From contig CAZACC010000001.1 of the NCBI GenBank assembly GCA_964483545.1, forward strand, positions 5,883 through 69,882: DNA of 64,000 nucleotides, read 5' to 3'. Shown one piece after another: positions 22,029 to 35,617 of the stretch; the first letter of the stretch is position 1, and each line of letters opens with the position of its first letter. The notes below the pieces were generated by a model. That model did not search any database. It saw only the letters and a list, made by a program, of their open reading frames with translations, and was not told the origin of the DNA. The stretch is from an uncultured Lachnospiraceae bacterium (GTDB lineage Bacteria; Bacillota; Clostridia; Lachnospirales; Lachnospiraceae). The position numbers and the translations under genes were made by a program.

Positions 22029-22508
22029 ATGTTGGAACAATCATACTATGATAAAACTGACGAAATCATACAAAGTCATGGGACCGAAGCCAGGTATCTT
22101 ATTCCGATCATGCAGGACATACAAAATGAGTATAGGTATTTGCCATCTGAACTTCTGATTTATGTCGCGAAGAAGCTGGACATTACTGAGGCAAAGGCTT
22201 ATAGTGTTGCGACCTTTTATGAGAACTTTTCTTTTGAAAAGAAAGGAAAGTACATTATTAAAGTATGTGATGGAACGGCTTGCCATGTGAGAAAATCTTT
22301 ACCGCTTTTGGAACGTTTGTATCAGGAATTAGGACTATCGTCCAATCAGCATACAACAGACGATATGCAGTTTACGGTAGAAACGGTTTCTTGTCTGGGC
22401 GCATGTGGTCTTGCGCCAGTATTGACGGTGAATGAAAAAGTACATCCCTCTATGACACCAGATAAGGTATCAGAACTTATAGAGAAGCTGAGAGGTGAGG
22501 ATGCATGA
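22029..22508 (+). CDS. hydC: [FeFe] hydrogenase NuoE-like [2Fe-2S] subunit
   Basis: Thioredoxin-like 2Fe-2S pattern: VCDGTACHV...SCLGACGLAPV. Confidence 0.85.
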   Translation: MLEQSYYDKTDEIIQSHGTEARYLIPIMQDIQNEYRYLPSELLIYVAKKLDITEAKAYSVATFYENFSFEKKGKYIIKVCDGTACHVRKSLPLLERLYQELGLSSNQHTTDDMQFTVETVSCLGACGLAPVLTVNEKVHPSMTPDKVSELIEKLRGEDA

Positions 22509-24394
22509 GAATACAATCAGGGGAAGCGTTGGATCAGAAGAGGGAAAAAACGCTATCCAGAATTAAGAGTGATGATGTGAGGATTTTGATCTGTGCGGGA
22601 ACAGGTTGTCTTGCAGGCGGCTCCGCATCCATCTATGAACGTCTCTGTGAACTGACCCAAAATGATGCAGGAACAAGTGTAGAATTCGGAGTAGAAATTG
22701 CCCACAGACTGGAAGATCATAAACAAGTCGGAATCAAGAAGAGCGGATGCCATGGTTTTTGTGAGATGGGACCGCTTGTCCGGATTGAGCCATATAATAT
22801 CCTCTATATTAAGGTTCAAGAAGAAGATTGTGAAGAAATCTATGAAAAGACGATTTTGAAGGGTGAACCGATTGAACGTCTTTTATATGAGTCAAATGGG
22901 GTAAAGTATCAGACTCAGGAGGATATCCCTTTTTATGCAAAGCAAACCCGTCTGGTATTAAAAAATTGCGGACATATTGATGCAGAACATATTGACGAAT
23001 CTATTGCCTTTGGTGGATATCAAGCCTTAAAGAAGGCTTTATTTGAGATGTCGCCTGAAGATGTCGTCAATGAGATTTTAGAATCTAATCTGCGTGGCAG
23101 AGGCGGCGGGGGATTTCAGACAGGTTATAAGTGGAAACAGGTTGCCAGACAAGCAGAGAAGATTCGTTATGTGGTCTGCAACGGTGATGAGGGAGATCCA
23201 GGTGCTTTCATGGACAGGAGTGTTATGGAAGGCGATCCTCATAAGATGATCGAAGGAATGATCATTGCTGGATACGCTGTAGGAGCGCAGGAAGGCTATA
23301 TCTACGTGCGTGCAGAATATCCGCTCGCTATCAGCCGTTTAAAGATTGCCATTGGACAGGCGGAGGAAGCAGGTCTTCTGGGCAATCGTATTATGGGTTC
23401 AGACTACAGTTTTACATTACAGATTAACCGTGGTGCAGGTGCTTTTGTGTGTGGTGAAGGCAGCGCATTGACTGCTTCTATTGAAGGAGAACGCGGAATG
23501 CCGAGAACCAAACCGCCGCGTACGGTAGAACAGGGTCTTTTTGGCAAGCCAACAGTTTTGAATAACGTAGAAACCTATGTCAATGTGCCAATGATTATCA
23601 CAAGAGGTGCAGCATGGTATCATACGATTGGAACAGAAAAGAGTCCAGGAACAAAAGCATTTGCTGTAACTGGAAGCATTAATAATACAGGATTAATTGA
23701 GGTTCCCATGGGGACGACATTGCAGAAAATTGTCTATGATATCGGTGGCGGAATCAAAAATGGAAAGAACTTTAAAGCGGTTCAGATAGGCGGACCATCT
23801 GGTGGATGTCTGATGGAGACACATTTAGATCTGCCGCTCGATTTTGATTCTCTGAAAAAGATGGGAGCAATGATCGGCTCTGGCGGACTGGTCATCATGG
23901 ATGAGGATACCTGCATGGTAGAGGTAGCCAGATTCTTTATGAATTTTACCCAGAATGAAAGCTGTGGCAAGTGTGTGCCATGTCGCGAGGGTACAAAACG
24001 AATGCTGGAGATTTTGGAGGATCTAGTTGCAGGAAGAGGAACTCTGGAACAATTGGATATCCTGCAAGAACTGGGAGAAGCCATCACGGATACAGCTCTA
24101 TGTGGTCTGGGCAAGAGTGCGGCACTTCCTGTACTATCAACCCTCAGGCTGTTTAGAGATGAATATGAAGAACATGTAACACAGAAAAAGTGCAGGACAG
24201 GAACCTGTCAAGCATTGCGTACATATAAGATTGATCCGAAGAAGTGTAAGGGCTGTTCCAAGTGTGCAAGGAGCTGTCCAGTTAGTGCTATCAGCGGTGA
24301 AATTAAGAACCCGTTCAGCATTGATATAAGCAAATGCATTAAGTGTGGAGCATGCGAAAGCTCATGTCCTTTTAAGGCAATATCAGCTTCATAG
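22505..24394 (+). CDS. hydB: [FeFe] hydrogenase NuoF-like flavoprotein subunit
   Basis: GRGGGGFQTG (FMN/NADH site), ESCGKCVPCREG, and a C-terminal 2x[4Fe-4S] ferredoxin domain (CKGCSKCARSCP, CIKCGACESSCP). Confidence 0.9.
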   Translation: MRIQSGEALDQKREKTLSRIKSDDVRILICAGTGCLAGGSASIYERLCELTQNDAGTSVEFGVEIAHRLEDHKQVGIKKSGCHGFCEMGPLVRIEPYNILYIKVQEEDCEEIYEKTILKGEPIERLLYESNGVKYQTQEDIPFYAKQTRLVLKNCGHIDAEHIDESIAFGGYQALKKALFEMSPEDVVNEILESNLRGRGGGGFQTGYKWKQVARQAEKIRYVVCNGDEGDPGAFMDRSVMEGDPHKMIEGMIIAGYAVGAQEGYIYVRAEYPLAISRLKIAIGQAEEAGLLGNRIMGSDYSFTLQINRGAGAFVCGEGSALTASIEGERGMPRTKPPRTVEQGLFGKPTVLNNVETYVNVPMIITRGAAWYHTIGTEKSPGTKAFAVTGSINNTGLIEVPMGTTLQKIVYDIGGGIKNGKNFKAVQIGGPSGGCLMETHLDLPLDFDSLKKMGAMIGSGGLVIMDEDTCMVEVARFFMNFTQNESCGKCVPCREGTKRMLEILEDLVAGRGTLEQLDILQELGEAITDTALCGLGKSAALPVLSTLRLFRDEYEEHVTQKKCRTGTCQALRTYKIDPKKCKGCSKCARSCPVSAISGEIKNPFSIDISKCIKCGACESSCPFKAISAS

Positions 24395-24412
24395 GATAGG
24401 GAGGAAAATACC

Positions 24413-26098
24413 ATGGATTATATGACAATAGATTCCTTAACGGTACCTATTGAAGGAGAAAAGAATATATTATCAGTTATCCGTAAAGCGGGTATAGATT
24501 TGCCTACATTTTGCTATCACTCTGAACTATCTATCTACGGTGCATGCCGTATGTGTGTGGTGGAGGATGACAAGGGACGCATTTTTGCGTCCTGTTCTGA
24601 GCAGCCGAGACCAGGCATGGTCATTCAGACGAATACGAAGAAGATTCAGCAGTACCGTAAACTGATCATAGAATTGCTGCTGTCGACACACTGTCGTGAC
24701 TGTACAGTATGCACCAAGAATGGAATGTGTGATCTGCAGAGTCTGGCCTATCGTGTAGGAGTTCATGCAGTCAGATTTCTGAATAACAGAAAAGAAAAGC
24801 CTCTTGATATGAGCTCTCCAAGTATTGTCAGAGACCCAAATAAATGCATTCTATGTGGGGATTGTGTACGTACATGTTCAGAAATTCAGGGAATTGGTGC
24901 ATTAGATTTTGCATATCGTGGATCTAAAATGGAGGTAACGCCTGCATTTGGCAAGACACTTGCCGAGACAGACTGTGTTGGCTGTGGTCAATGTCGATCA
25001 GTATGTCCTACAGCAGCGATATCTATTAGAACCAATGTAACTGAGGTATGGGATGCAATTGCGAATCCAAAGGTACGTGTGGTGGCTCAGATCGCACCAG
25101 CAGTACGCGTGGCGGTTGGAGATCGGTTTGGATTGCCGAAGGGCGAGAACAGTATGGGCAAGCTGGTATCTGCACTCCGTATGATGGGATTTGATGCGGT
25201 ATATGATACTAATTTTGGTGCAGATTTAACTGTTATGGAGGAGTCTAAAGAGTTTGCGGAGAGACTGGAAAAGAATGAAAAACTTCCGCTTTTTACTTCC
25301 TGCTGTCCTGCATGGGTGAAATATTGTGAGACGAAACATCCTGAATTTGCAGAGAATGTTTCCTCCTGCCGTTCGCCGCAGGGTATGTTTTCTGCGGTTG
25401 TAAAGGAGTATTTTAAGGAAAAGGATAAGGAAGAAGATAAAACGACTTATATTGTGTCTATTATGCCCTGTACGGCCAAGAAGGCAGAAATTCTTCGACC
25501 TGATAATCATACCAACGGTGTACAGGATACAGATATTGTTCTGACTACGGTTGAGATCGTTCGTATGATTCGTCAGGTTGGAATAAAGTTTGAGGAGTTA
25601 GACGGAGAGGCACCAGATATGCCGTTTGGCATGGCATCTGGAGGAGCAGCTATCTTTGGTGTGACAGGTGGCGTCACAGAGGCAGTGCTTCGTCATTTAT
25701 CTGAGAAACATATACATAGTGCGTTATCTGAGATTCAGTACAGTGGAATCAGAGGAACAGAGAACCTCAAGGAAGCAACGGTGATGCTAGGCGACCAGGA
25801 GGTTAAGATTGCTGTGATTCATGGACTTGCGAATGCAGGCAGGCTGCTGGACAGAATCAAAGCAGGAGAAGTATACTATGATTTTGTAGAAGTTATGGCA
25901 TGCCGACGAGGATGTATTCTGGGCGGAGGACAGCCTCTTCCGATGGGATCACGTACCCGTGCTGGACGTACAGAGGGTATCTATCGTGTAGATAAGCAGT
26001 CACAAATTCGGTTTACGGATGACAACCCCGTACTGTCACAGGTTTATGAGGAGATTATTTGTGGGAATGAACATAAACTTTTACATCGGGCGAATTAA
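24413..26098 (+). CDS. hydA: [FeFe] hydrogenase catalytic subunit
   Basis: N-terminal 2Fe-2S and 4Fe-4S domains plus the H-cluster motifs TSCCPAWV, MPCTAKK and VMACRRGCILGGGQP. Confidence 0.9.
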   Translation: MDYMTIDSLTVPIEGEKNILSVIRKAGIDLPTFCYHSELSIYGACRMCVVEDDKGRIFASCSEQPRPGMVIQTNTKKIQQYRKLIIELLLSTHCRDCTVCTKNGMCDLQSLAYRVGVHAVRFLNNRKEKPLDMSSPSIVRDPNKCILCGDCVRTCSEIQGIGALDFAYRGSKMEVTPAFGKTLAETDCVGCGQCRSVCPTAAISIRTNVTEVWDAIANPKVRVVAQIAPAVRVAVGDRFGLPKGENSMGKLVSALRMMGFDAVYDTNFGADLTVMEESKEFAERLEKNEKLPLFTSCCPAWVKYCETKHPEFAENVSSCRSPQGMFSAVVKEYFKEKDKEEDKTTYIVSIMPCTAKKAEILRPDNHTNGVQDTDIVLTTVEIVRMIRQVGIKFEELDGEAPDMPFGMASGGAAIFGVTGGVTEAVLRHLSEKHIHSALSEIQYSGIRGTENLKEATVMLGDQEVKIAVIHGLANAGRLLDRIKAGEVYYDFVEVMACRRGCILGGGQPLPMGSRTRAGRTEGIYRVDKQSQIRFTDDNPVLSQVYEEIICGNEHKLLHRAN

Positions 26099-27683: not shown

Positions 27684-29897
27684 ATGCAAAGAGCAGACAT
27701 GCTAGGTGAGAGACTGGTCAGATCCGGTTATATCAGCAGGGAACAGCTGGAATATGCAGTTTATCGTCAGAAGGAGCTGGGCGGTAAACTGGGTGATATT
27801 TTAGTTGCGGAAAGATATCTGACAGACAAAGAGTTATCTGATTTTATATTTGAAAGTAAAAGCACAAAAATAGGGGAACTTCTGCTGCAGGAGAGATATA
27901 TCACGGAGAGACAGCTGGCTCAGGCGTTGGACTATCAGAAACGTAATGGGGGTCGTATCGGAGATATCTGTGTAGCATTTGGATATGTAAGTGAAGAAAA
28001 GCTTAAAAGAATCATGAACAAACGAAAAAGAGCGCACAGTAAGCTTGGAGAGACACTTATTCAAAAAGAAATCATCAGCGAGGAACAGCTGGATGATGTA
28101 GTTGAGATGCAGCAACGAAGTGGCGGAAAACTTGGCGAGATCTTGTTATTCATGGGATATGTTACGGAAGAAGATCTATATCGTGAACTGGCAAATCAGT
28201 CAGAAATGGGTCGTACTGGAGAAGATAATGGATTGGGTGTTACGGAAAGGCTTCCTTTTGCGCTTGCGACAAAATATAATGCTGTAGTGATTAATAAAAG
28301 GGGTAGTGTCTGTGTAGTAGCTGTAGCCAGTCAATTACCTGAAGATGGGGTTAGAGAAATTGAAAAATTTCTTGGAAAGAAAACGGAGCAGGTATTGGCA
28401 ACCCAAGGTGAAATGAATCAATATTGGGATATCATATATAGAAGAAAGCAGAAACATCAAAGTATATTCGACCTGTACGATTCCCAGCCCGATAACTCAG
28501 CAATCGTTACATTCACATCAAAGCAGTTGGGAGTATTGATTGCAATCGGAGTGTTGCTTGTGTCAGGGTTAATCTTGAACTGGAGAGTAACGCTGTTTTC
28601 AATTAATATCTTTTTTCAGGTACTTTATGCGATCATGACTATATTGAAGCTTTGGATTGTATTAAAAGGAGAGAGAAAAAACACTCAGATTAAGTACAGT
28701 GCAAAGCGTCTTTCAGAGATAGATGAAACCAAGCTACCGATTTATACATTATTAATTCCGGTGTATAAAGAAACGGAGGTTCTGAAGCAGCTGATTTATA
28801 ATATAGAGCAATTAGATTACCCGAAGTATAAGCTTGATGTCAGAATTTTACTGGAAGAGGATGATCGGGAAACAATAGAGTTGGTAAGAACCATGAATCT
28901 ACCGAGCTGTTATAGTTCTATTGTAGTGCCGTCTTCCGCACCTCAGACAAAACCAAAAGCTTGTAACTATGGTCTGATACATGCAAAGGGCGAGTATGTG
29001 GTCATTTATGATGCAGAAGACAGACCTGAACCAGATCAGCTGAAAAAGGCATATTTGGCATTTCAGGAGCTACCGGAAGAATATGTATGCATTCAAGCAA
29101 AACTGAATTATTTTAACAGTAACCAAAACTTTTTAACTAAACTGTTTACCCAGGAGTATAGTATGTGGTTTGAACTGCTGCTGGTAGGAATCATGCAGAT
29201 GGATGTGCCAGTGCCCTTGGGTGAAACATCTAATCATTTCAAGATCAGTTTTCTGAAAGAGGTAGGAGGATGGGATCCCTTCAATGTTACAGAGGATGCG
29301 GATCTAGGAATCCGGCTGTTCAAGTTTGATTATAAAACAGCGATTCTTGATTCACGGACATGGGAAGAAGCTAATTCGAATGTAATTAACTGGATCAGAC
29401 AACGCTCCCGTTGGATAAAGGGGTATATGCAGACATGGCTGGTACATATGCGCCATCCAGTCACATTATACAAAACTCTTGGATTGAGAGGATTTGTCGG
29501 ATATCAGGCAATGATATTAGGCACACCGCTGCTTCCTTTAATCAATCCGATATTTTGGTTTATGATGGTTTTATGGTATACTACTGGAGCAGGATGGATA
29601 CAGGAATTATTTCCCGGCGTATTTTATTATCTGGCTGCCTTTCAATTGATATTTGGGAATTTCATGTTTACCTATATTAATATTATGGGTATGTATAGTG
29701 TAATCAGAGATTGTGCCTTGAAGAAAAAAAGTGTATTTTCATATAAACTGATCAAGTATGCACTATTTACGCCAATATATTGGTTATTAATGAGTATTGC
29801 TTCCTATAAAGCATTGTTTCAATTACTGTCGAACCCATTTTATTGGGAAAAGACGCACCATGGATTATCTGAAGAGGAGGGCGAAGGAGAAACATGA
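27684..29897 (+). CDS. processive family 2 glycosyltransferase (exopolysaccharide synthase) with three N-terminal MshEN/T2SSE_N-type modules
   Basis: Residues 6-172 carry six 24-residue xLGxxLLxxGyIxxxxLxxxLxxQ motifs, paired through 5-residue xxxGG spacers. The T2SSE_N alpha/beta part follows (LPFALATKYNAVVI). The TM/GT2 core has IYDAEDRP, VTEDADLG and RQRSRWIKG. Confidence 0.8.
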   Translation: MQRADMLGERLVRSGYISREQLEYAVYRQKELGGKLGDILVAERYLTDKELSDFIFESKSTKIGELLLQERYITERQLAQALDYQKRNGGRIGDICVAFGYVSEEKLKRIMNKRKRAHSKLGETLIQKEIISEEQLDDVVEMQQRSGGKLGEILLFMGYVTEEDLYRELANQSEMGRTGEDNGLGVTERLPFALATKYNAVVINKRGSVCVVAVASQLPEDGVREIEKFLGKKTEQVLATQGEMNQYWDIIYRRKQKHQSIFDLYDSQPDNSAIVTFTSKQLGVLIAIGVLLVSGLILNWRVTLFSINIFFQVLYAIMTILKLWIVLKGERKNTQIKYSAKRLSEIDETKLPIYTLLIPVYKETEVLKQLIYNIEQLDYPKYKLDVRILLEEDDRETIELVRTMNLPSCYSSIVVPSSAPQTKPKACNYGLIHAKGEYVVIYDAEDRPEPDQLKKAYLAFQELPEEYVCIQAKLNYFNSNQNFLTKLFTQEYSMWFELLLVGIMQMDVPVPLGETSNHFKISFLKEVGGWDPFNVTEDADLGIRLFKFDYKTAILDSRTWEEANSNVINWIRQRSRWIKGYMQTWLVHMRHPVTLYKTLGLRGFVGYQAMILGTPLLPLINPIFWFMMVLWYTTGAGWIQELFPGVFYYLAAFQLIFGNFMFTYINIMGMYSVIRDCALKKKSVFSYKLIKYALFTPIYWLLMSIASYKALFQLLSNPFYWEKTHHGLSEEEGEGET

Positions 29898-32167
29898 TCA
29901 ATAAAGTACAGCAGTGGCTTCTATATACAGTATGGGTGATCACAGTATTTTTAGTTTTATCGGTAATGAAGGAAACGGTATATGCAGCTGAAGTAGGCTA
30001 TGTAGATCTGCAATTGTTTGAGAAAACAAAAAAAATGGACATGCCTAAAAATACGGCTTCATATTGGTTCACTTTACCAGAAGGTACAATGGTAGATGAG
30101 AACAGCTATCTGATGCTGAATATGAAATTATCCAATACATTGATATATGAGCGTTCCAGCATTACACTGGAGATTAATGAGACAGCATTGGAGACTCAAT
30201 GGCTTCTTGATCTGCAGGAGGATACTGTACGTTCATGGAAGGTGGAGATACCTGTAGATGTGCTGAAAATAGGAGAATTAAATGAACTGAAAATTATTAC
30301 AACTCAACGATCGATAGAAGGAGACTGTGCAGATATAGATAATCCAAGTAACTGGATTAATATATTAAATACATCATATCTTCATATCGCAATAGATAAG
30401 TTTGCAGCACCCAGAATTAATAATCTATATACGTTTCTCTATGATGGTCTTGGGAATAAGGGAACTCTTGAGAACGAATATATATTACCAAAGACAGTGA
30501 CAGATGATCAGATAGAGGGAATGTTTCAGATCTCATCAGCAGTCGGTATGTACTATCCGTATAATGATAATTTGAGTTACTGTGTGTCAACGGGGGCACC
30601 ATCTTCTTCGGAGATCAAGAATAAATATTTTATTGGTTATGATAACAGCTACTCGGAAGATCAGGGAATTACATTTCCTTCTGCACCAATGTCGGAAAAT
30701 ATGGGGTATATTTCAGTTGCGGACAAAACTACGACAGCTCCCTATTATAAAACTCTGATCGTCGGGAAAGATGCCGTTGGATTACAAAAGGCTGTTCAAT
30801 TCTTCTGTGTTAAGGATTTCATGGAAGAAATAACAGGTACACAGATAACGGTCGTAAGTGATCTGGCAACACTACAAAATAAAAACATTCGTCAGGAAGC
30901 TGAAAAAAAAGAATCAGGATATTATAAGCTGGATGATTTCGGATATGATTCGGTCAATCTTGTAGGAGCCTTTCATCAGAGCACAAATTTCTCGTTCTTA
31001 CAGCCAGACGGAATACAAAGTGGAGATGATTCCTACATATTAGTCAGATTCCGACATTCAAAGGCGCTGGAATCAGATCATTCTCTCATGACGGTATATT
31101 TTGATGAGATTGCTGCGGGCAGTGTCAAGCTTTCAGCTTCCAATGCGGATTATGGAGAAATCAAAGTCACAATACCAGATGAATGCCTGAAAAAAAATAC
31201 GATTAATGTAAAGATAGACTGCTATAACTATCTTGGAAAAATTGATTGTTCGAAGGATTATTATGATACTGCATGGACTGTGATTGATAAAGCTACGGAA
31301 ATATACTTTGAACCAGGTGATACAGGTGTTATTCCGACCTTGGCCAATACACCATCTTTTTATTCAAATGGCAATCAGAACAGTATTGTGATGGGGTTAT
31401 CAAAACAACCCTCAGAACAGCAACTGGCAATGGCATGTGAGTTGGCAACTAGGGCAGGACAGAACAACAGAGAAGCTATTTCATGGTCTTTATGCAGGGA
31501 TTGTGGGAAACTTACCGAGGAAGAGACGAAGCAGGATATGATCTTCCTGCAGCAAAATGATGATATCAGCCTCCCAGCGGAAGTTCAGACGGAACTTGGA
31601 ATTGTTCCGCTTGGAGAATACAAGTATTCAATTGCGGGAGATGTTCCTGTAACAGCAGAGATGCTGGCCGGAAAGATTATTGTACAGGTAATCCGTTCTC
31701 CGTGGGACTTTGAGAAGAGAATTTATACCATTACATATAGTGAAGGGGCATCGGAAACATTAGATCAAGTACTTTCTGATAAAGCTATCATAGAAAAGCT
31801 GACAGGGCAGATTGCATTAATTGATCCGACGGGAAAGGTCACAAATTATGAACGTATAGATACCAATCAAAAGGAAGAAAAGGTGCCCGTCACATGGGAG
31901 AGAATAAAGTATCTGGTAGAAAAAAGAACTGGCGTTTCAATCTGGATCGTGATAGGCGCAGCAGCCTTGATTATCATAGCAATCATAGTTTTATTCCGAG
32001 TGATCGGAAACAGGAAGCGGTTTAAACAGGCGGCAAAAAACATGGAACGTGCAAATCAAAAAAGAGACACGACATCGGAGCAAAATGAAGATTTTCCGAT
32101 GGATGAAGAGGAAATCGTATATAAATTTCAGGAGTATGGAGATCATTATCCTGAGGATGAAGAATAA
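29894..32167 (+). CDS. BcsB-like extracytoplasmic synthase partner (N-terminal signal/anchor, C-terminal TM anchor)
   Basis: 4-nt overlap with the synthase gene. A large extracytoplasmic region is followed by one C-terminal TM (VSIWIVIGAAALIIIAIIVLF) and an acidic tail, which is BcsB-like topology. One segment (YLMLNMKLSNTLIYERSSITLEINETAL) resembles the BcsB repeat pattern. Confidence 0.45.
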   Translation: MINKVQQWLLYTVWVITVFLVLSVMKETVYAAEVGYVDLQLFEKTKKMDMPKNTASYWFTLPEGTMVDENSYLMLNMKLSNTLIYERSSITLEINETALETQWLLDLQEDTVRSWKVEIPVDVLKIGELNELKIITTQRSIEGDCADIDNPSNWINILNTSYLHIAIDKFAAPRINNLYTFLYDGLGNKGTLENEYILPKTVTDDQIEGMFQISSAVGMYYPYNDNLSYCVSTGAPSSSEIKNKYFIGYDNSYSEDQGITFPSAPMSENMGYISVADKTTTAPYYKTLIVGKDAVGLQKAVQFFCVKDFMEEITGTQITVVSDLATLQNKNIRQEAEKKESGYYKLDDFGYDSVNLVGAFHQSTNFSFLQPDGIQSGDDSYILVRFRHSKALESDHSLMTVYFDEIAAGSVKLSASNADYGEIKVTIPDECLKKNTINVKIDCYNYLGKIDCSKDYYDTAWTVIDKATEIYFEPGDTGVIPTLANTPSFYSNGNQNSIVMGLSKQPSEQQLAMACELATRAGQNNREAISWSLCRDCGKLTEEETKQDMIFLQQNDDISLPAEVQTELGIVPLGEYKYSIAGDVPVTAEMLAGKIIVQVIRSPWDFEKRIYTITYSEGASETLDQVLSDKAIIEKLTGQIALIDPTGKVTNYERIDTNQKEEKVPVTWERIKYLVEKRTGVSIWIVIGAAALIIIAIIVLFRVIGNRKRFKQAAKNMERANQKRDTTSEQNEDFPMDEEEIVYKFQEYGDHYPEDEE

Positions 32168-32182: not shown

Positions 32183-33100
32183 ATGGATAAACCAGTTTTG
32201 GTCATTATGGCAGCAGGAATGGGGAGCCGATATGGAGGTTTGAAACAGATTGATCCTGTAGACAAGGAGGGGCACAAAATCATAGATTTTTCTATCTATG
32301 ATGCCGTAAGAGCAGGATTTCAAAAGGTAATCTTTATTATTAAGAAGGAAAATGAGGCAGACTTTCGAACCTGTATTGGGGATGTAGTCAAGGGACAGAT
32401 TGAGGTAGAGTATATTTATCAGGAACTGACAGATATTCCACAGGGCTGTACCATCCCAGAGGGGCGTGCAAAGCCTTGGGGCACGGCTCATGCGATTTTA
32501 AGCTGTAGAAATGTAATCAATGGATCTTTTGCAGTCATTAATGCAGATGATTATTATGGCAGAGAGGCTTTCCAGGCAATTTATGATTATATGGCGGTTA
32601 CAACGGATGATGAGAAATATCGTTATGCAATGGTAGGCTATGAGCTTGGAAAGACATTGACAGAGAATGGATATGTATCCAGAGGTGTCTGTGAGACCGA
32701 TGTAGATTCATATTTAACTGATCTTGTGGAACGTACACATATTGAAAAGACTGCTGAAGGTGCGATCTATACAGAGGATGACATACATTATACAGAGATA
32801 TCAACAGACAGTCTGGTATCCATGAATATGTGGGGTTTTTCTAAGAGCTTTATGAAGGAGGCAGAAATTGCGTTTGAGAAGTTCTTTCAGGAAGAAGTAT
32901 CAGAGAATCCCTTGAAGGCAGAGTGTTATCTGCCATCAGTCGTAGATAGTCTGCTCAAGGTGGGAAAGGCGACTGTTAAAGTGCTTTATTCTAAAGACCG
33001 CTGGTTTGGTGTAACGTACAAAGAAGATAAACCTTTTGTAATGGAGTCAATCGCGGCATTGAAGGCAAGCGGCGTCTATCCGCAGAAGCTGTGGGGTTAA
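32183..33100 (+). CDS. sugar-phosphate nucleotidyltransferase
   Basis: N-terminal pyrophosphorylase loop VIMAAGMGSRYGGLKQ and NADDYYG, in a GT-A-like nucleotidyltransferase fold pattern. Confidence 0.7.
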   Translation: MDKPVLVIMAAGMGSRYGGLKQIDPVDKEGHKIIDFSIYDAVRAGFQKVIFIIKKENEADFRTCIGDVVKGQIEVEYIYQELTDIPQGCTIPEGRAKPWGTAHAILSCRNVINGSFAVINADDYYGREAFQAIYDYMAVTTDDEKYRYAMVGYELGKTLTENGYVSRGVCETDVDSYLTDLVERTHIEKTAEGAIYTEDDIHYTEISTDSLVSMNMWGFSKSFMKEAEIAFEKFFQEEVSENPLKAECYLPSVVDSLLKVGKATVKVLYSKDRWFGVTYKEDKPFVMESIAALKASGVYPQKLWG

Positions 33101-34137
33101 TGAAAGATTGATTCGTAATCGTATTGCATTGCGTAATCATACATATGAATCAACGTATCATAATAGTTGTCTTTTGTCAGTTCATGCCTTCCGTCACGCA
33201 TATCTTCGTATAGCATATAGCTGATTTCCTGTGAAAAATGGGAATAGTCACGATAATGATTGAGATCGGTAATAATGTCTGTATCATCTTGAAAATAGAA
33301 GATACGGACATTTTCATATTCTAATAAAGATTCAAAGACATTGATCATTGCAGATACTTCAGCAGCAGCTTCACCACGTCTCGTGCTGTCATCCCAGAAT
33401 AAGATACTATAAGGAGGACAGTAAAAATAGAATTCTACATCAGGACGAGCTTCGATATAGGGCGTAATGGATGCAATAAAGTGATTGCTGTAGTCCATGT
33501 AGGTATCGTAATTTTTTTCGGGCAATATCTGCAGACTTCTCTGTGTATTATAGATACCGAGAACAGTCGACTGATTAAATTGATACTTATGTGCCCATGA
33601 ATAAGCATTGTCAGCGCTGTAATGTTCCCACTTATTATTGATGAGAAATTCGGGCAGATACTCAAATAGAACATCTTTATTCCAGATATAATATACATCA
33701 TTCAGATAATTATGATCGGATAGATAATATGGAATGGTAGTTGGATAATCTCCAGGAACATTTGTCAACAGGTAGGTGTCCATGGAAAAAAGTACATTTT
33801 TCACATGATCCTGCTGCAGTACTTCGTTGAACATGATATCATAATCATCGAAATGTGCACCCTGTAGGCAAAGCTTGACACACCTTTCTCCAAATACGCC
33901 GTCTTCGAACCAGGATTCCTTGAAGTTTTCACTCATGGAAGAACCAATCAGAGCAGTATCATAATCCATGTTGCGGGCGACACCAATCAGTGCATAACGC
34001 TCCTCAGTCTCTACTGCTGCTAATTTGCCAAGCGGTGCATGATAGTGAATAAAAGGGTCAACAATCACTACTGCAGCAGCAATCATGAGCAGTATTCCAG
34101 CAATCCATGCAATTGTAGTGAGTGCAAATTTTTTCAT
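33097..34137 (-). CDS. membrane-anchored DltD/SGNH-like protein (MBOAT partner)
   Basis: Start trimmed to MKKFALTT, preceded by AAGAGG. An N-terminal anchor, a Ser block (ALIGSSMSENF) and a C-terminal DxxH-like block (YRDYSHFS) are present. It lies directly downstream of an MBOAT gene. Confidence 0.45.
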   Translation of the reverse strand: MKKFALTTIAWIAGILLMIAAAVVIVDPFIHYHAPLGKLAAVETEERYALIGVARNMDYDTALIGSSMSENFKESWFEDGVFGERCVKLCLQGAHFDDYDIMFNEVLQQDHVKNVLFSMDTYLLTNVPGDYPTTIPYYLSDHNYLNDVYYIWNKDVLFEYLPEFLINNKWEHYSADNAYSWAHKYQFNQSTVLGIYNTQRSLQILPEKNYDTYMDYSNHFIASITPYIEARPDVEFYFYCPPYSILFWDDSTRRGEAAAEVSAMINVFESLLEYENVRIFYFQDDTDIITDLNHYRDYSHFSQEISYMLYEDMRDGRHELTKDNYYDTLIHMYDYAMQYDYESIFH

Positions 34138-34147
34138 AATAGCCTCT

Positions 34148-35617
34148 TTAAAAATTAACATACAGGAAGGTTCCTACCTCCGAGAAGGAAAGAACAGACC
34201 AGATGAACAGTAGAATCAAGGTGAACATGGTACGTTTATTTGGTTGGAAAGTGGCTGCCCTCTGTCGGATGTTTTTCATGCATGTTCCTGCAATCAAAGC
34301 AAATAGAAGAAAGGCGATTAACAGAACACTGCCCGTATAGTATACAGAGAGGGGTCTGTAGTGCAGCACAATTTTCTGAATCAGGTTGAATTCACTTGGC
34401 AGTACTGTGGCAACCATATCTGCAGAAATTGGCGTAAATCGAAAGGAAATCAGCTGTTGAAGCATCATGTTGGCATAGGTAATGTCTTCTGCTCTGAAGT
34501 AAACCCATGCGATATTTATAAACAGGAAAGTACCGAGCCACCTGAGAAAGGACGGAACCTTCTGCATAAAGCTTTTGCATAGTTTACTGAGACAGATACC
34601 AATTCCATGCAGGATGCCCCAGAGGATAAAAGTGAATGCAGCACCGTGCCATAAGCCGCTGAGCAGGAAAATCAGGAACATATTCAGATAAGTTCGAACC
34701 TTTCCTTTACGATTGCCACCAAGTGGAAAGTAAACATAAACCCGAAAAAAACGAGTCAGCGTGATATGCCAGCGTTTCCAGAATTCATCAATTGATTTTG
34801 CTTTATAGGGAGAATCGAAGTTATCTATCAAATCTATATTCAGTATCAGACAGATACCAGAGGCCATATCACAGTAGCCGCTGAAGTCAAAATAAATTTG
34901 CAGAGTATAGGATAAAATAACGATCAGAGAATTCAGCGTTCCAAGAGATGGAATATTGATGTAACCCCAGTCGACAATGGAACCAAGGTTATCAGCCAAC
35001 AACATTTTTTTTGCAAGACCAAAGGAAAAAGCCAGCATACCTTTGGAAATATTTTCATAATTCAAGGATTTTTTATTCACATCGTTAAACTGGGGGATTA
35101 GCTCATTGTGAAATACGATTGGACCTTGTGTAATTTTTGGGAAAAATGAAACAAATAATGCATAGTCCAGTATTCGATAGCGAATGGAGGAATCACGATA
35201 GCTGTCGACGATAAAAGCAATTTGCTGGAAAGTGAAAAAGCTGATGCCAAGCGGCAGGAGTAGATTACGAAGTAATAAAGAGGTTCCTAAATGCTGATTC
35301 AGAGTTATTGAGAAAAAATCCAGATACTTGAATATGAATAAAGCACCAAGATTGATGCAAATGCCTGCAATCAGAATGATTTTTTTCGGGACTGATTGGT
35401 GAACATGGTCAAATAGAAAAACAATAAAGTAATTTAATAGAATGCTGATTAGAATGACGGGAAGAAATGCGATATTGGTATATGCATAAAACCATAATGA
35501 CATGCCAAGCAGGAACAGCTTGGCAAAATCATAATGGTTTGTTTTGTTGATTGTATAGTAGCCAATTACCGATATTGGCAAAAAGACCAGTACAAACAGA
35601 AAAGAATTGAATATCAT
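34148..35617 (-). CDS. MBOAT family O-acyltransferase (AlgI/DltB-like)
   Basis: LPLGISFFTFQQIAFIVDSYR, FDFSGYCDMA, FWKRWHITLTRFFRVYVYFPLGGNR and SGLWHGA. Confidence 0.85.
   Translation of the reverse strand: MIFNSFLFVLVFLPISVIGYYTINKTNHYDFAKLFLLGMSLWFYAYTNIAFLPVILISILLNYFIVFLFDHVHQSVPKKIILIAGICINLGALFIFKYLDFFSITLNQHLGTSLLLRNLLLPLGISFFTFQQIAFIVDSYRDSSIRYRILDYALFVSFFPKITQGPIVFHNELIPQFNDVNKKSLNYENISKGMLAFSFGLAKKMLLADNLGSIVDWGYINIPSLGTLNSLIVILSYTLQIYFDFSGYCDMASGICLILNIDLIDNFDSPYKAKSIDEFWKRWHITLTRFFRVYVYFPLGGNRKGKVRTYLNMFLIFLLSGLWHGAAFTFILWGILHGIGICLSKLCKSFMQKVPSFLRWLGTFLFINIAWVYFRAEDITYANMMLQQLISFRFTPISADMVATVLPSEFNLIQKIVLHYRPLSVYYTGSVLLIAFLLFALIAGTCMKNIRQRAATFQPNKRTMFTLILLFIWSVLSFSEVGTFLYVNF

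Follow-up and report, generated by a model that had tools for sequence, protein, structure and literature searches.

The control of exopolysaccharide synthesis by cyclic diguanylate (c-di-GMP) is well described in Proteobacteria (PilZ, PgaCD, PelD, NfrB), but sketchy in Gram-positive anaerobes. In the present study we analysed a 64,000-nucleotide (nt) stretch of DNA of an uncultured Lachnospiraceae bacterium (GenBank assembly GCA_964483545.1, contig CAZACC010000001.1, positions 5,883 to 69,882 of the forward strand; hereafter the window). It carries a gene for a polysaccharide synthase in which a membrane glycosyltransferase of family 2 (GT2) is preceded by three consecutive units of the MshEN_N type, i.e. 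of the ligand-binding part of a known c-di-GMP receptor. MshEN_N has been defined by two 24-residue motifs, RLGxx(L/V/I)(L/V/I)xxG(L/V/I)(L/V/I)xxxxLxxxLxxQ, with 5 residues between them (Wang et al. 2016). The array had been proposed in an earlier sequence-only reading of the window, whose claims are taken up below.

Among the closest described systems is NfrB of Escherichia coli, a c-di-GMP-activated exopolysaccharide synthase (GT2-MshEN) that binds c-di-GMP with a dissociation constant (Kd) of 1 uM; binding and glycosyltransferase activity are both required (Junkermeier & Hengge 2021, PMC8669469). Our synthase resembles NfrB in being a membrane GT2 (DxD, TED, QxxRW) fused to an MshEN-type receptor instead of PilZ, and the receptor regions of the two proteins can be aligned (model NF008411 at residues 113-260 of our protein). 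However, the MshEN of NfrB is single and C-terminal, whereas the receptor studied here is N-terminal, and the partners of NfrB are NfrA and YbcH, with outer-membrane export, whereas our synthase is accompanied by a BcsB-like protein and a GT-C glycosyltransferase in a locus of the Gram-positive type. Its classification as an NfrB equivalog was rejected (64.8 bits with NF008411 against a cut-off of 1170, with the MshEN region alone aligned).

Another close architecture is MshEN-Glyco_trans_2_3, represented by Rsph17029_0522 of Rhodobacter sphaeroides and recorded in Actinobacteria, Firmicutes and Proteobacteria (Wang et al. 2016, Suppl. Table 4). Here the order of the parts is the same (N-terminal receptor, C-terminal GT2), but the published entry has one MshEN, whereas our protein has two extra MshEN_N units ahead of it. 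Homologues are labelled 'glycosyltransferase XagB' by JGI, and no biochemically characterised member of this architecture was apparent in the searchable literature. Three consecutive N-terminal MshEN-type modules are also found in PilF of Thermus thermophilus and PilB of Deinococcus ((MshEN)3-T2SSE); in PilF, however, these are complete N+C domains of about 140 amino acids (aa) each, placed on a pilus ATPase, whereas two of the three modules of our protein are bare 53-residue MshEN_N units, placed on a glycosyltransferase. Finally, BcsA-BcsB shares with our locus the processive GT2 fold with a transmembrane (TM) channel and a BcsB-family partner encoded immediately downstream, although the receptor in our synthase is not PilZ. 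The identification as BcsA or CelA was rejected (TIGR03030: 55.4 bits against 699.1; NF008558: 43.6 against 992; no PilZ), as was that as the clostridial cellulose synthase CcsA, since CcsA of C. difficile is a GT2 with PilZ, whose partner is not homologous to BcsB.

The N-terminal region of the synthase (residues 6-172; 27699..28199 of the window) comprises six half-motifs of 24 residues each, which form three 53-residue units; in each unit the halves are separated by a spacer of 5 residues ending in GG (Table 1). The half-motifs were scored at the 11 specified positions of the published motif, in a relaxed and a strict version, and the relaxed version was satisfied at 10-11 positions in each of them. 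NCBIfam model NF053729 ('cyclic di-GMP-binding domain, MshE-related'; 53 positions) gave three matches, with E 1.5e-51 for the whole protein, and all the units, when scanned singly, scored above its cut-off of 38 bits (60.6-68.8 bits; Table 1), unit 3 being the most canonical of the three. The units are 36-42% identical in pairwise comparisons of protein and about 50% identical at the DNA level, so the triplication is old and does not represent a recent repeat.

A structural model was obtained with AlphaFold2 (AF2) from 60 homologues (mean predicted local distance difference test score, pLDDT, 78; predicted TM-score, pTM, 0.72). In this model each unit is predicted to form four helices (pLDDT 84-90), located at residues 7-13, 19-32, 36-42 and 48-57 in unit 1 and 63-69, 75-88, 92-98 and 104-113 in unit 2; the array is followed by an alpha/beta MshEN_C subdomain and a long helix (241-267) directed toward the membrane. 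Foldseek searches of the PDB matched the N-terminal region to c-di-GMP-bound MshE (5htl; target TM-score, TMt, 0.70; root-mean-square deviation 3.5 Å) and to c-di-GMP-bound PilF GSPII-B (9gl5, TMt 0.76; 8pdk was matched too). These superpositions span about 140 residues, which we attribute to unit 3 plus MshEN_C. At the sequence level, the best PDB match of the N-terminus was T. thermophilus PilF (6f8l, three aligned stretches), and residues 118-254 could be aligned with the N-terminus of PilB (5zfr, E 1.5e-11).

Pfam model PF05157 (MshEN, 90 positions) produced only one match in the synthase (residues 187-254; 28 bits, cut-off 23.1). In an unrelated (MshEN)4-ATPase the motif unit occupies residues 8-60 and the PF05157 match (61-147) begins right behind it, which indicates that this model represents MshEN_C and is blind to the ligand-binding units. 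PF05157 was therefore rejected as a copy counter (it would give 1 rather than 3), and NF053729 together with our own unit profiles (hidden Markov models, HMMs) was used instead. MshEN_C is present once, behind unit 3, and is missing from units 1 and 2. Since unit 3 alone precedes MshEN_C, the architecture of the protein is (MshEN_N)2-MshEN-TM hairpin-GT2-TM. The hairpin is read from two hydropathy peaks (Table 1), the same region being one long helix in the AF2 model.

The GT2 part was matched by PF13641 (residues 354-580) and PF13632 (438-653), and its DAED, TED and QRSRW motifs, the last of them a canonical QxxRW, are invariant in the 60-sequence alignment. The synthase matches BcsA by sequence (4hg6/5ej1), and in Foldseek searches its GT2 part was similar to BcsA (5ej1, E 6e-8 over 461 columns) and to hyaluronan synthase (HAS; 8smn). 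The confidence of the AF2 model is low at residues 509-540. TM helices were detected on both sides of the GT2 domain by hydropathy and in the AF2 model, and a Pfam scan of the synthase gave no PilZ match at E <= 0.01. Sequence and model thus support a membrane-integrated processive GT2 with a BcsA/HAS-like fold.

These results confirm what the sequence-only reading observed and, as far as sequence and fold are concerned, support its interpretation. The six 24-residue motifs, arranged in three pairs with GG-ending spacers, occur in the translation of the open reading frame (ORF) exactly as quoted there, and the register of the published motif was found in them. Its multi-TM GT2 with DAED (443), TED (536) and QRSRW (573), as well as its lack of PilZ, were likewise recovered. 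The proposal of three MshEN modules holds for MshEN_N, in view of the triple NF053729 match, the four predicted helices per unit and the superposition of the unit 3 region on MshE and PilF GSPII-B, but has to be narrowed insofar as unit 3 alone is part of a complete MshEN domain, the first two modules being MshEN_N only. The suggested count of MshEN copies with an HMM gave different answers with Pfam PF05157 (1) and NF053729 (3), and the suggested survey of homologous synthases revealed that three copies are the rule among the closest homologues.

The survey was based on the 120 closest homologues, which together with our protein gave 121 sequences. The homologues are 55-95% identical to the synthase and nearly all are about 735-755 aa long; those assigned to named taxa are all from Clostridia (C. 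carboxidivorans, C. scatologenes, Desulfitobacterium hafniense, Desulforamulus, Desulfosporosinus, Acetobacterium, Caproicibacter, Lachnospiraceae), and their annotations are merely 'glycosyltransferase family 2' or 'XagB'. Three units were counted in 112 of the 121 proteins, two in 8 and four in 1. In 107 of the 112 three-unit proteins the units start 56/58 residues apart. The three-unit array is thus a trait of the family and not a one-off. All six half-motifs of the 112 three-unit proteins have Gly at motif position 3 without exception, and positions 2, 17 and 21 are nearly always hydrophobic. Motif position 10 (the central Gly) varies freely, and Lys, Leu or Pro is frequently found at position 1.

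We also scanned one genome per species: the scan yielded 591 relatives, 80 of whose loci (L001-L080) were kept, and the units were counted with the family HMM. Proteins with (i) three units were encoded in Clostridia (L001-L006) and in one metagenome-assembled genome (MAG) labelled Planctomycetota (L007), (ii) two units in Paenibacillus, Cohnella and Sporolactobacillus (L008-L019 except L018), (iii) four units in one Clostridiaceae MAG (L018), and (iv) one unit in Actinobacteria, Chloroflexota, Thermotogota and others. For Mucilaginibacter the count was 0-1, probably too low because diverged motifs escape an HMM built on clostridial sequences. With HMMs specific for each unit, single units were classified as unit 3-like in 34 of 46 cases, two-unit proteins as U2+U3 and both four-unit proteins as U1+U1+U2+U3; the single-unit relatives from Actinobacteria and Chloroflexota align with our protein from about residue 115 on. 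These classes fit a stepwise addition of units at the N-terminus, in the order U3, U2+U3, U1+U2+U3 and U1+U1+U2+U3.

As to the role of the array, we consider it likely that binding of c-di-GMP allosterically switches on polymerisation and translocation by the synthase. According to this model, an inner-membrane synthase-type GT2 similar to BcsA and NfrB would make an exopolysaccharide, while the cytoplasmic N-terminal array of three MshEN_N units would bind c-di-GMP. Unit 3 and MshEN_C would be coupled by the long helix to the first TM region. Up to three ligands could be bound per synthase chain, most securely at unit 3, and the ligand-bound array would allosterically activate polymerisation and translocation. 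Such gating would parallel that of BcsA through PilZ. The co-translated BcsB-like partner would assist translocation of the polymer. Beyond the membrane, the polymer would probably be modified or transferred by the neighbouring GT-C protein, while the sugar precursor would come from a nucleotidyltransferase. We infer gating by c-di-GMP from the precedent of NfrB and from the complete (100%) conservation of Gly3: in MshE the backbone amides at the motif Gly form hydrogen bonds with guanine, and mutants G11L/G40I bind c-di-GMP poorly if at all. The domain architecture, the motifs, the predicted folds, the conservation within the family and the neighbouring genes are shown by the present data; the binding of the ligand and its stoichiometry, an activating rather than inhibitory effect, and the nature of the polymer are inferred.

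Within the array, unit 3 appears to be the most secure predicted c-di-GMP site, and units 1 and 2 probably bind the ligand too. The latter is suggested because these units strictly keep the residues lost by the non-binding XpsE, which carries G11V, G40L, L54H and L58C, and because MshEN_N does not need MshEN_C for binding (0.35 uM for c-di-GMP when isolated). The sequence-only reading had suspected some copies of being degenerate, on account of deviations at motif positions 1 and 10. At these sites, however, changes are tolerated (PilF GSPII-B, with Lys and Leu in position 1, shows 6 nM binding); the loss of the terminal Gln from the second half of units 1 and 2 is more telling.

Several observations speak against control of the synthase by c-di-GMP through the whole array. 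None of the six half-motifs fully satisfies the strict version of the motif (6-9 of 11 positions in each). At the end of the second half-motif, our protein has Ser in unit 1 and Arg in unit 2 instead of the terminal Gln; in the family as a whole this Gln is conserved in unit 3 alone (102/112), with S/D/N in unit 1 and R/N/H in unit 2. One of the three MshEN-type domains of T. thermophilus PilF, GSPII-A, is non-binding, and it is the first in the series. Wang et al. (2016) report that MshEN can bind cyclic GMP-AMP (cGAMP) as well. Finally, neither a c-di-GMP riboswitch (Rfam) nor a gene for a diguanylate cyclase (GGDEF) was found in the 64-kb window, and the same was true of EAL and PilZ genes.

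The strongest alternative, which we nevertheless regard as unlikely, is that unit 3 alone is a working c-di-GMP site, while units 1 and 2 are degenerate and have been retained for spacing, for oligomerisation or for docking, e.g. of a dedicated diguanylate cyclase, as DgcJ on NfrB. The restriction of the terminal Gln to unit 3 speaks for it, and the precedent of PilF with its non-binding GSPII-A keeps the alternative alive; the prevalence of unit 3-like sequences among single-unit relatives is consistent with unit 3 as the ancestral core, and a direct interaction of NfrB with DgcJ has been demonstrated (PMC8669469). However, degeneration is opposed by the invariance of Gly3 in both halves and the nearly always hydrophobic positions 2, 17 and 21, which are exactly the residues that XpsE has lost, by NF053729 scores as good as that of unit 3, and by the efficient binding by MshEN_N devoid of MshEN_C.

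A tentative and rather improbable extension of allosteric activation by c-di-GMP is that all three units are functional with differing affinities, and that the array acts as a multi-threshold or ultrasensitive 'counter' of c-di-GMP, which determines when polymer synthesis starts and how fast it proceeds. The sites of PilF do differ in affinity (6 nM vs 460 nM), and this protein binds two ligands on its three domains, with no extensive cooperativity between them. If the extension is true, unit accretion (from 1 to 2, 3 and 4 units, by lineage) would be an evolutionary dial tuning the dose-response of the synthase.

It is very improbable that the array senses another cyclic dinucleotide (cGAMP) or is only a protein-protein module, so that the polymer would not be under c-di-GMP control. 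The reported cGAMP binding and the lack of GGDEF, EAL and PilZ genes in the window are compatible with such a role, but 64 kb is too small for judging the diguanylate cyclase content of the genome. Moreover, the MshEN-type modules described as binders in the literature consulted, i.e. those of MshE, PA14_29490, PilF GSPII-B and -C, NfrB and Bd2402, all take c-di-GMP, which was the one competitor able to displace the ligand from NfrB (PMC8669469), and the guanine-stacking residues of the motif are retained in our protein. As for a chance pattern or a low-complexity helical feature unrelated to MshEN, for which only the imperfect match to the strict consensus speaks, this origin of the repeats is already refuted by the significance of the match to the curated NF053729 model, the fold matches to MshE and PilF, and the register and spacing kept across more than 100 homologues.

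To place the array in a wider context, a three-unit profile was searched against 1.84 billion representative proteins (E <= 1e-3). It matched 15,612 proteins, many of which, at the top of the list, had between 3 and 9 matched stretches. In 20 of the matched proteins, Pfam scans revealed arrays that are stand-alone (7 units in 397 aa) or linked to Hpt, REC, HDOD, T2SSE ATPase and Ig/fn3 domains, as well as NfrB-like GT2 synthases that end in an array of 3 or 5 units at the C-terminus (P0340, P0269, P0256). Up to 9 MshEN_N stretches were matched per protein (array examples: P0252, P0254, P0259, P0264, P0256, P0340), and array proteins of about 1160-1180 aa carry Hpt and TSP3, some of them also a dockerin domain. 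Wang et al. (2016) had already tabulated (MshEN)2-4-T2SSE, (MshEN_N)2 and Glyco_trans_2_3-MshEN (NfrB). Neither the MshEN-GT2 fusion nor the multiplicity of the array is therefore new in kind, and the novelty implied by the sequence-only reading was overstated, given that the fusion in Firmicutes and both types of array have been on record since 2016. Our literature searches found no published description of the clostridial (MshEN_N)2-MshEN-GT2 family, which is an uncharacterised, lineage-wide variant of the known MshEN-regulated GT2 synthases.

The annotation of such proteins has a pitfall, because the Pfam MshEN model overlooks the ligand-binding units and the synthases are labelled only 'glycosyltransferase family 2'. 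In addition, MshEN_N units draw recurrent matches to the Pfam families FumaraseC_C (PF10415), DUF4388 (PF14332) and DUF2949 (PF11165). In the synthase of the window these are below the cut-offs, which are however passed in proteins with many units, where the scores add up.

As shown in Table 1, the synthase gene sits in a tight cluster of genes on the same strand.

Table 1. Features of the synthase gene and its cluster (positions in the window; residue numbers refer to the synthase in the rows from unit 1 to the GT2 domain)
Feature	Position	Strand	Evidence
GT-C-fold membrane glycosyltransferase, 509 aa	26131..27660	+	AF2 (pLDDT 91.6), Foldseek, GT39-named homologues
(MshEN_N)2-MshEN-TM-GT2-TM polysaccharide synthase gene, 737 aa	27684..29897	+	ORF, Pfam, NF053729 (three matches), AF2, Foldseek
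MshEN_N unit 1, aa 6-58 (half-motifs 6-29 and 35-58, spacer KELGG)	27699..27857	+	NF053729, 60.6 bits
MshEN_N unit 2, aa 62-114 (half-motifs 62-85 and 91-114, spacer KRNGG)	27867..28025	+	NF053729, 67.4 bits
MshEN_N unit 3, aa 120-172 (half-motifs 120-143 and 149-172, spacer QRSGG)	28041..28199	+	NF053729, 68.8 bits
MshEN_C subdomain, aa ~176-267, alpha/beta, with long terminal helix to membrane	28209..28484	+	PF05157, AF2
N-terminal TM region, aa ~279-331	28518..28676	+	Hydropathy peaks 282-300 and 309-327; AF2 (single helix)
GT2 catalytic domain (D443AED, T536ED, Q573RSRW), then C-terminal TM helices	28743..29642	+	Pfam, motifs, BcsA similarity
BcsB-like partner, 757 aa, with N-terminal signal/TM and C-terminal TM anchor	29894..32167	+	PF03170, E 1.2e-31
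Sugar-1-phosphate nucleotidyltransferase-like gene, 305 aa	32183..33100	+	PF00483, E 9.8e-11

The first gene of this cluster ends 23 nt upstream of the synthase gene. Its 509-aa product had no Pfam match, but the Foldseek comparison of its AF2 model revealed a GT-C fold like that of DPY19, STT3, PglB and ArnT, and homologous proteins bear the name GT39 or Dol-P-Man protein mannosyltransferase. In taxa ranging from Clostridia to Actinobacteria and Chloroflexota, many of the 80 loci have a GT-C gene next to that of the MshEN-GT2 synthase. The start of the BcsB-like gene overlaps the stop of the synthase gene by 4 nt, and hydrophobic segments are present at residues 7-25 and 683-701 of its product. 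We refer to this protein as BcsB-like rather than BcsB, because in spite of the PF03170 match its score is far below the cut-offs for BcsB equivalogs. A BcsB-like gene is placed directly behind the synthase gene in L001-L006, i.e. in 6 of the 7 three-unit loci, and in none of the others among the 80. The GT-C protein may therefore be a more widespread partner of MshEN-GT2 synthases than the BcsB-like protein. The co-occurrence of xagBCD-like genes with a BcsB-like gene has earlier been noted in stalk-forming iron oxidisers.

The nucleotidyltransferase-like gene, located 15 nt downstream of the BcsB-like gene, shows weak matches to GlmU, RmlA and GalU; NTP_transferase genes also flank the synthase cluster in L003 and L006, and a supply of the polymer precursor is a probable function. 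The cluster of C. carboxidivorans P7 (L003, 5160-13507) comprises genes for a ManC-like NTP_transferase, a GT-C protein, a GT2 with GtrA/DPMS-type TM segments, which resembles a polyprenyl-phosphate-sugar synthase, the three-unit MshEN-GT2 synthase and the BcsB-like protein. The presence of the ManC-like gene and of the gene for this second GT2 hints at a lipid-linked sugar as the substrate with which the GT-C enzyme would decorate or transfer the polymer on the outer side of the membrane. A VanZ-like gene was found behind the BcsB-like gene in L006 (5936-14141).

The cluster of the window is met by a convergent pair of overlapping genes (33097-35617, minus strand), which encode an MBOAT/DltB-like O-acyltransferase of 489 aa and a protein of 354 aa. 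The pair is reminiscent of the O-acetylation pairs CcsH/CcsI or WssH/WssI, and it was not conserved beside the synthase in the loci examined. No family or structure match was obtained for the 354-aa protein, and PDB sequence searches with this protein and with the 509-aa neighbour gave no matches. Directly upstream of the cluster (22029-26098, plus strand) there are three genes similar to those of an electron-bifurcating [FeFe]-hydrogenase of the HydABC type (2Fe-2S thioredoxin-like subunit, Nuo51-like subunit and hydrogenase large subunit). They share the strand of the GT-C gene, from which only 33 nt separate them, and may be co-transcribed with it, since there is no convincing terminator in between. 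Promoter and terminator scans around the cluster revealed sites no more numerous than in shuffled sequence, and no Rfam family reached its gathering score in the window. GC skew was positive in 31 of the 32 2-kb blocks, with a cumulative skew that climbs almost unbroken across the window, and most of the long ORFs between 14 and 46 kb are on the plus strand. This pattern fits the leading strand of a chromosome of the Firmicute type with about 40% GC.

The synthase family described here occurs widely among Clostridia, for instance in the acetogens C. carboxidivorans and C. drakei as well as in members of Acetobacterium and Desulfitobacterium, and is a candidate for the missing link between c-di-GMP receptor and polysaccharide synthase in these organisms. 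The relatives with 1, 2, 3 and 4 units offer a natural experiment on the role of the extra MshEN_N modules.

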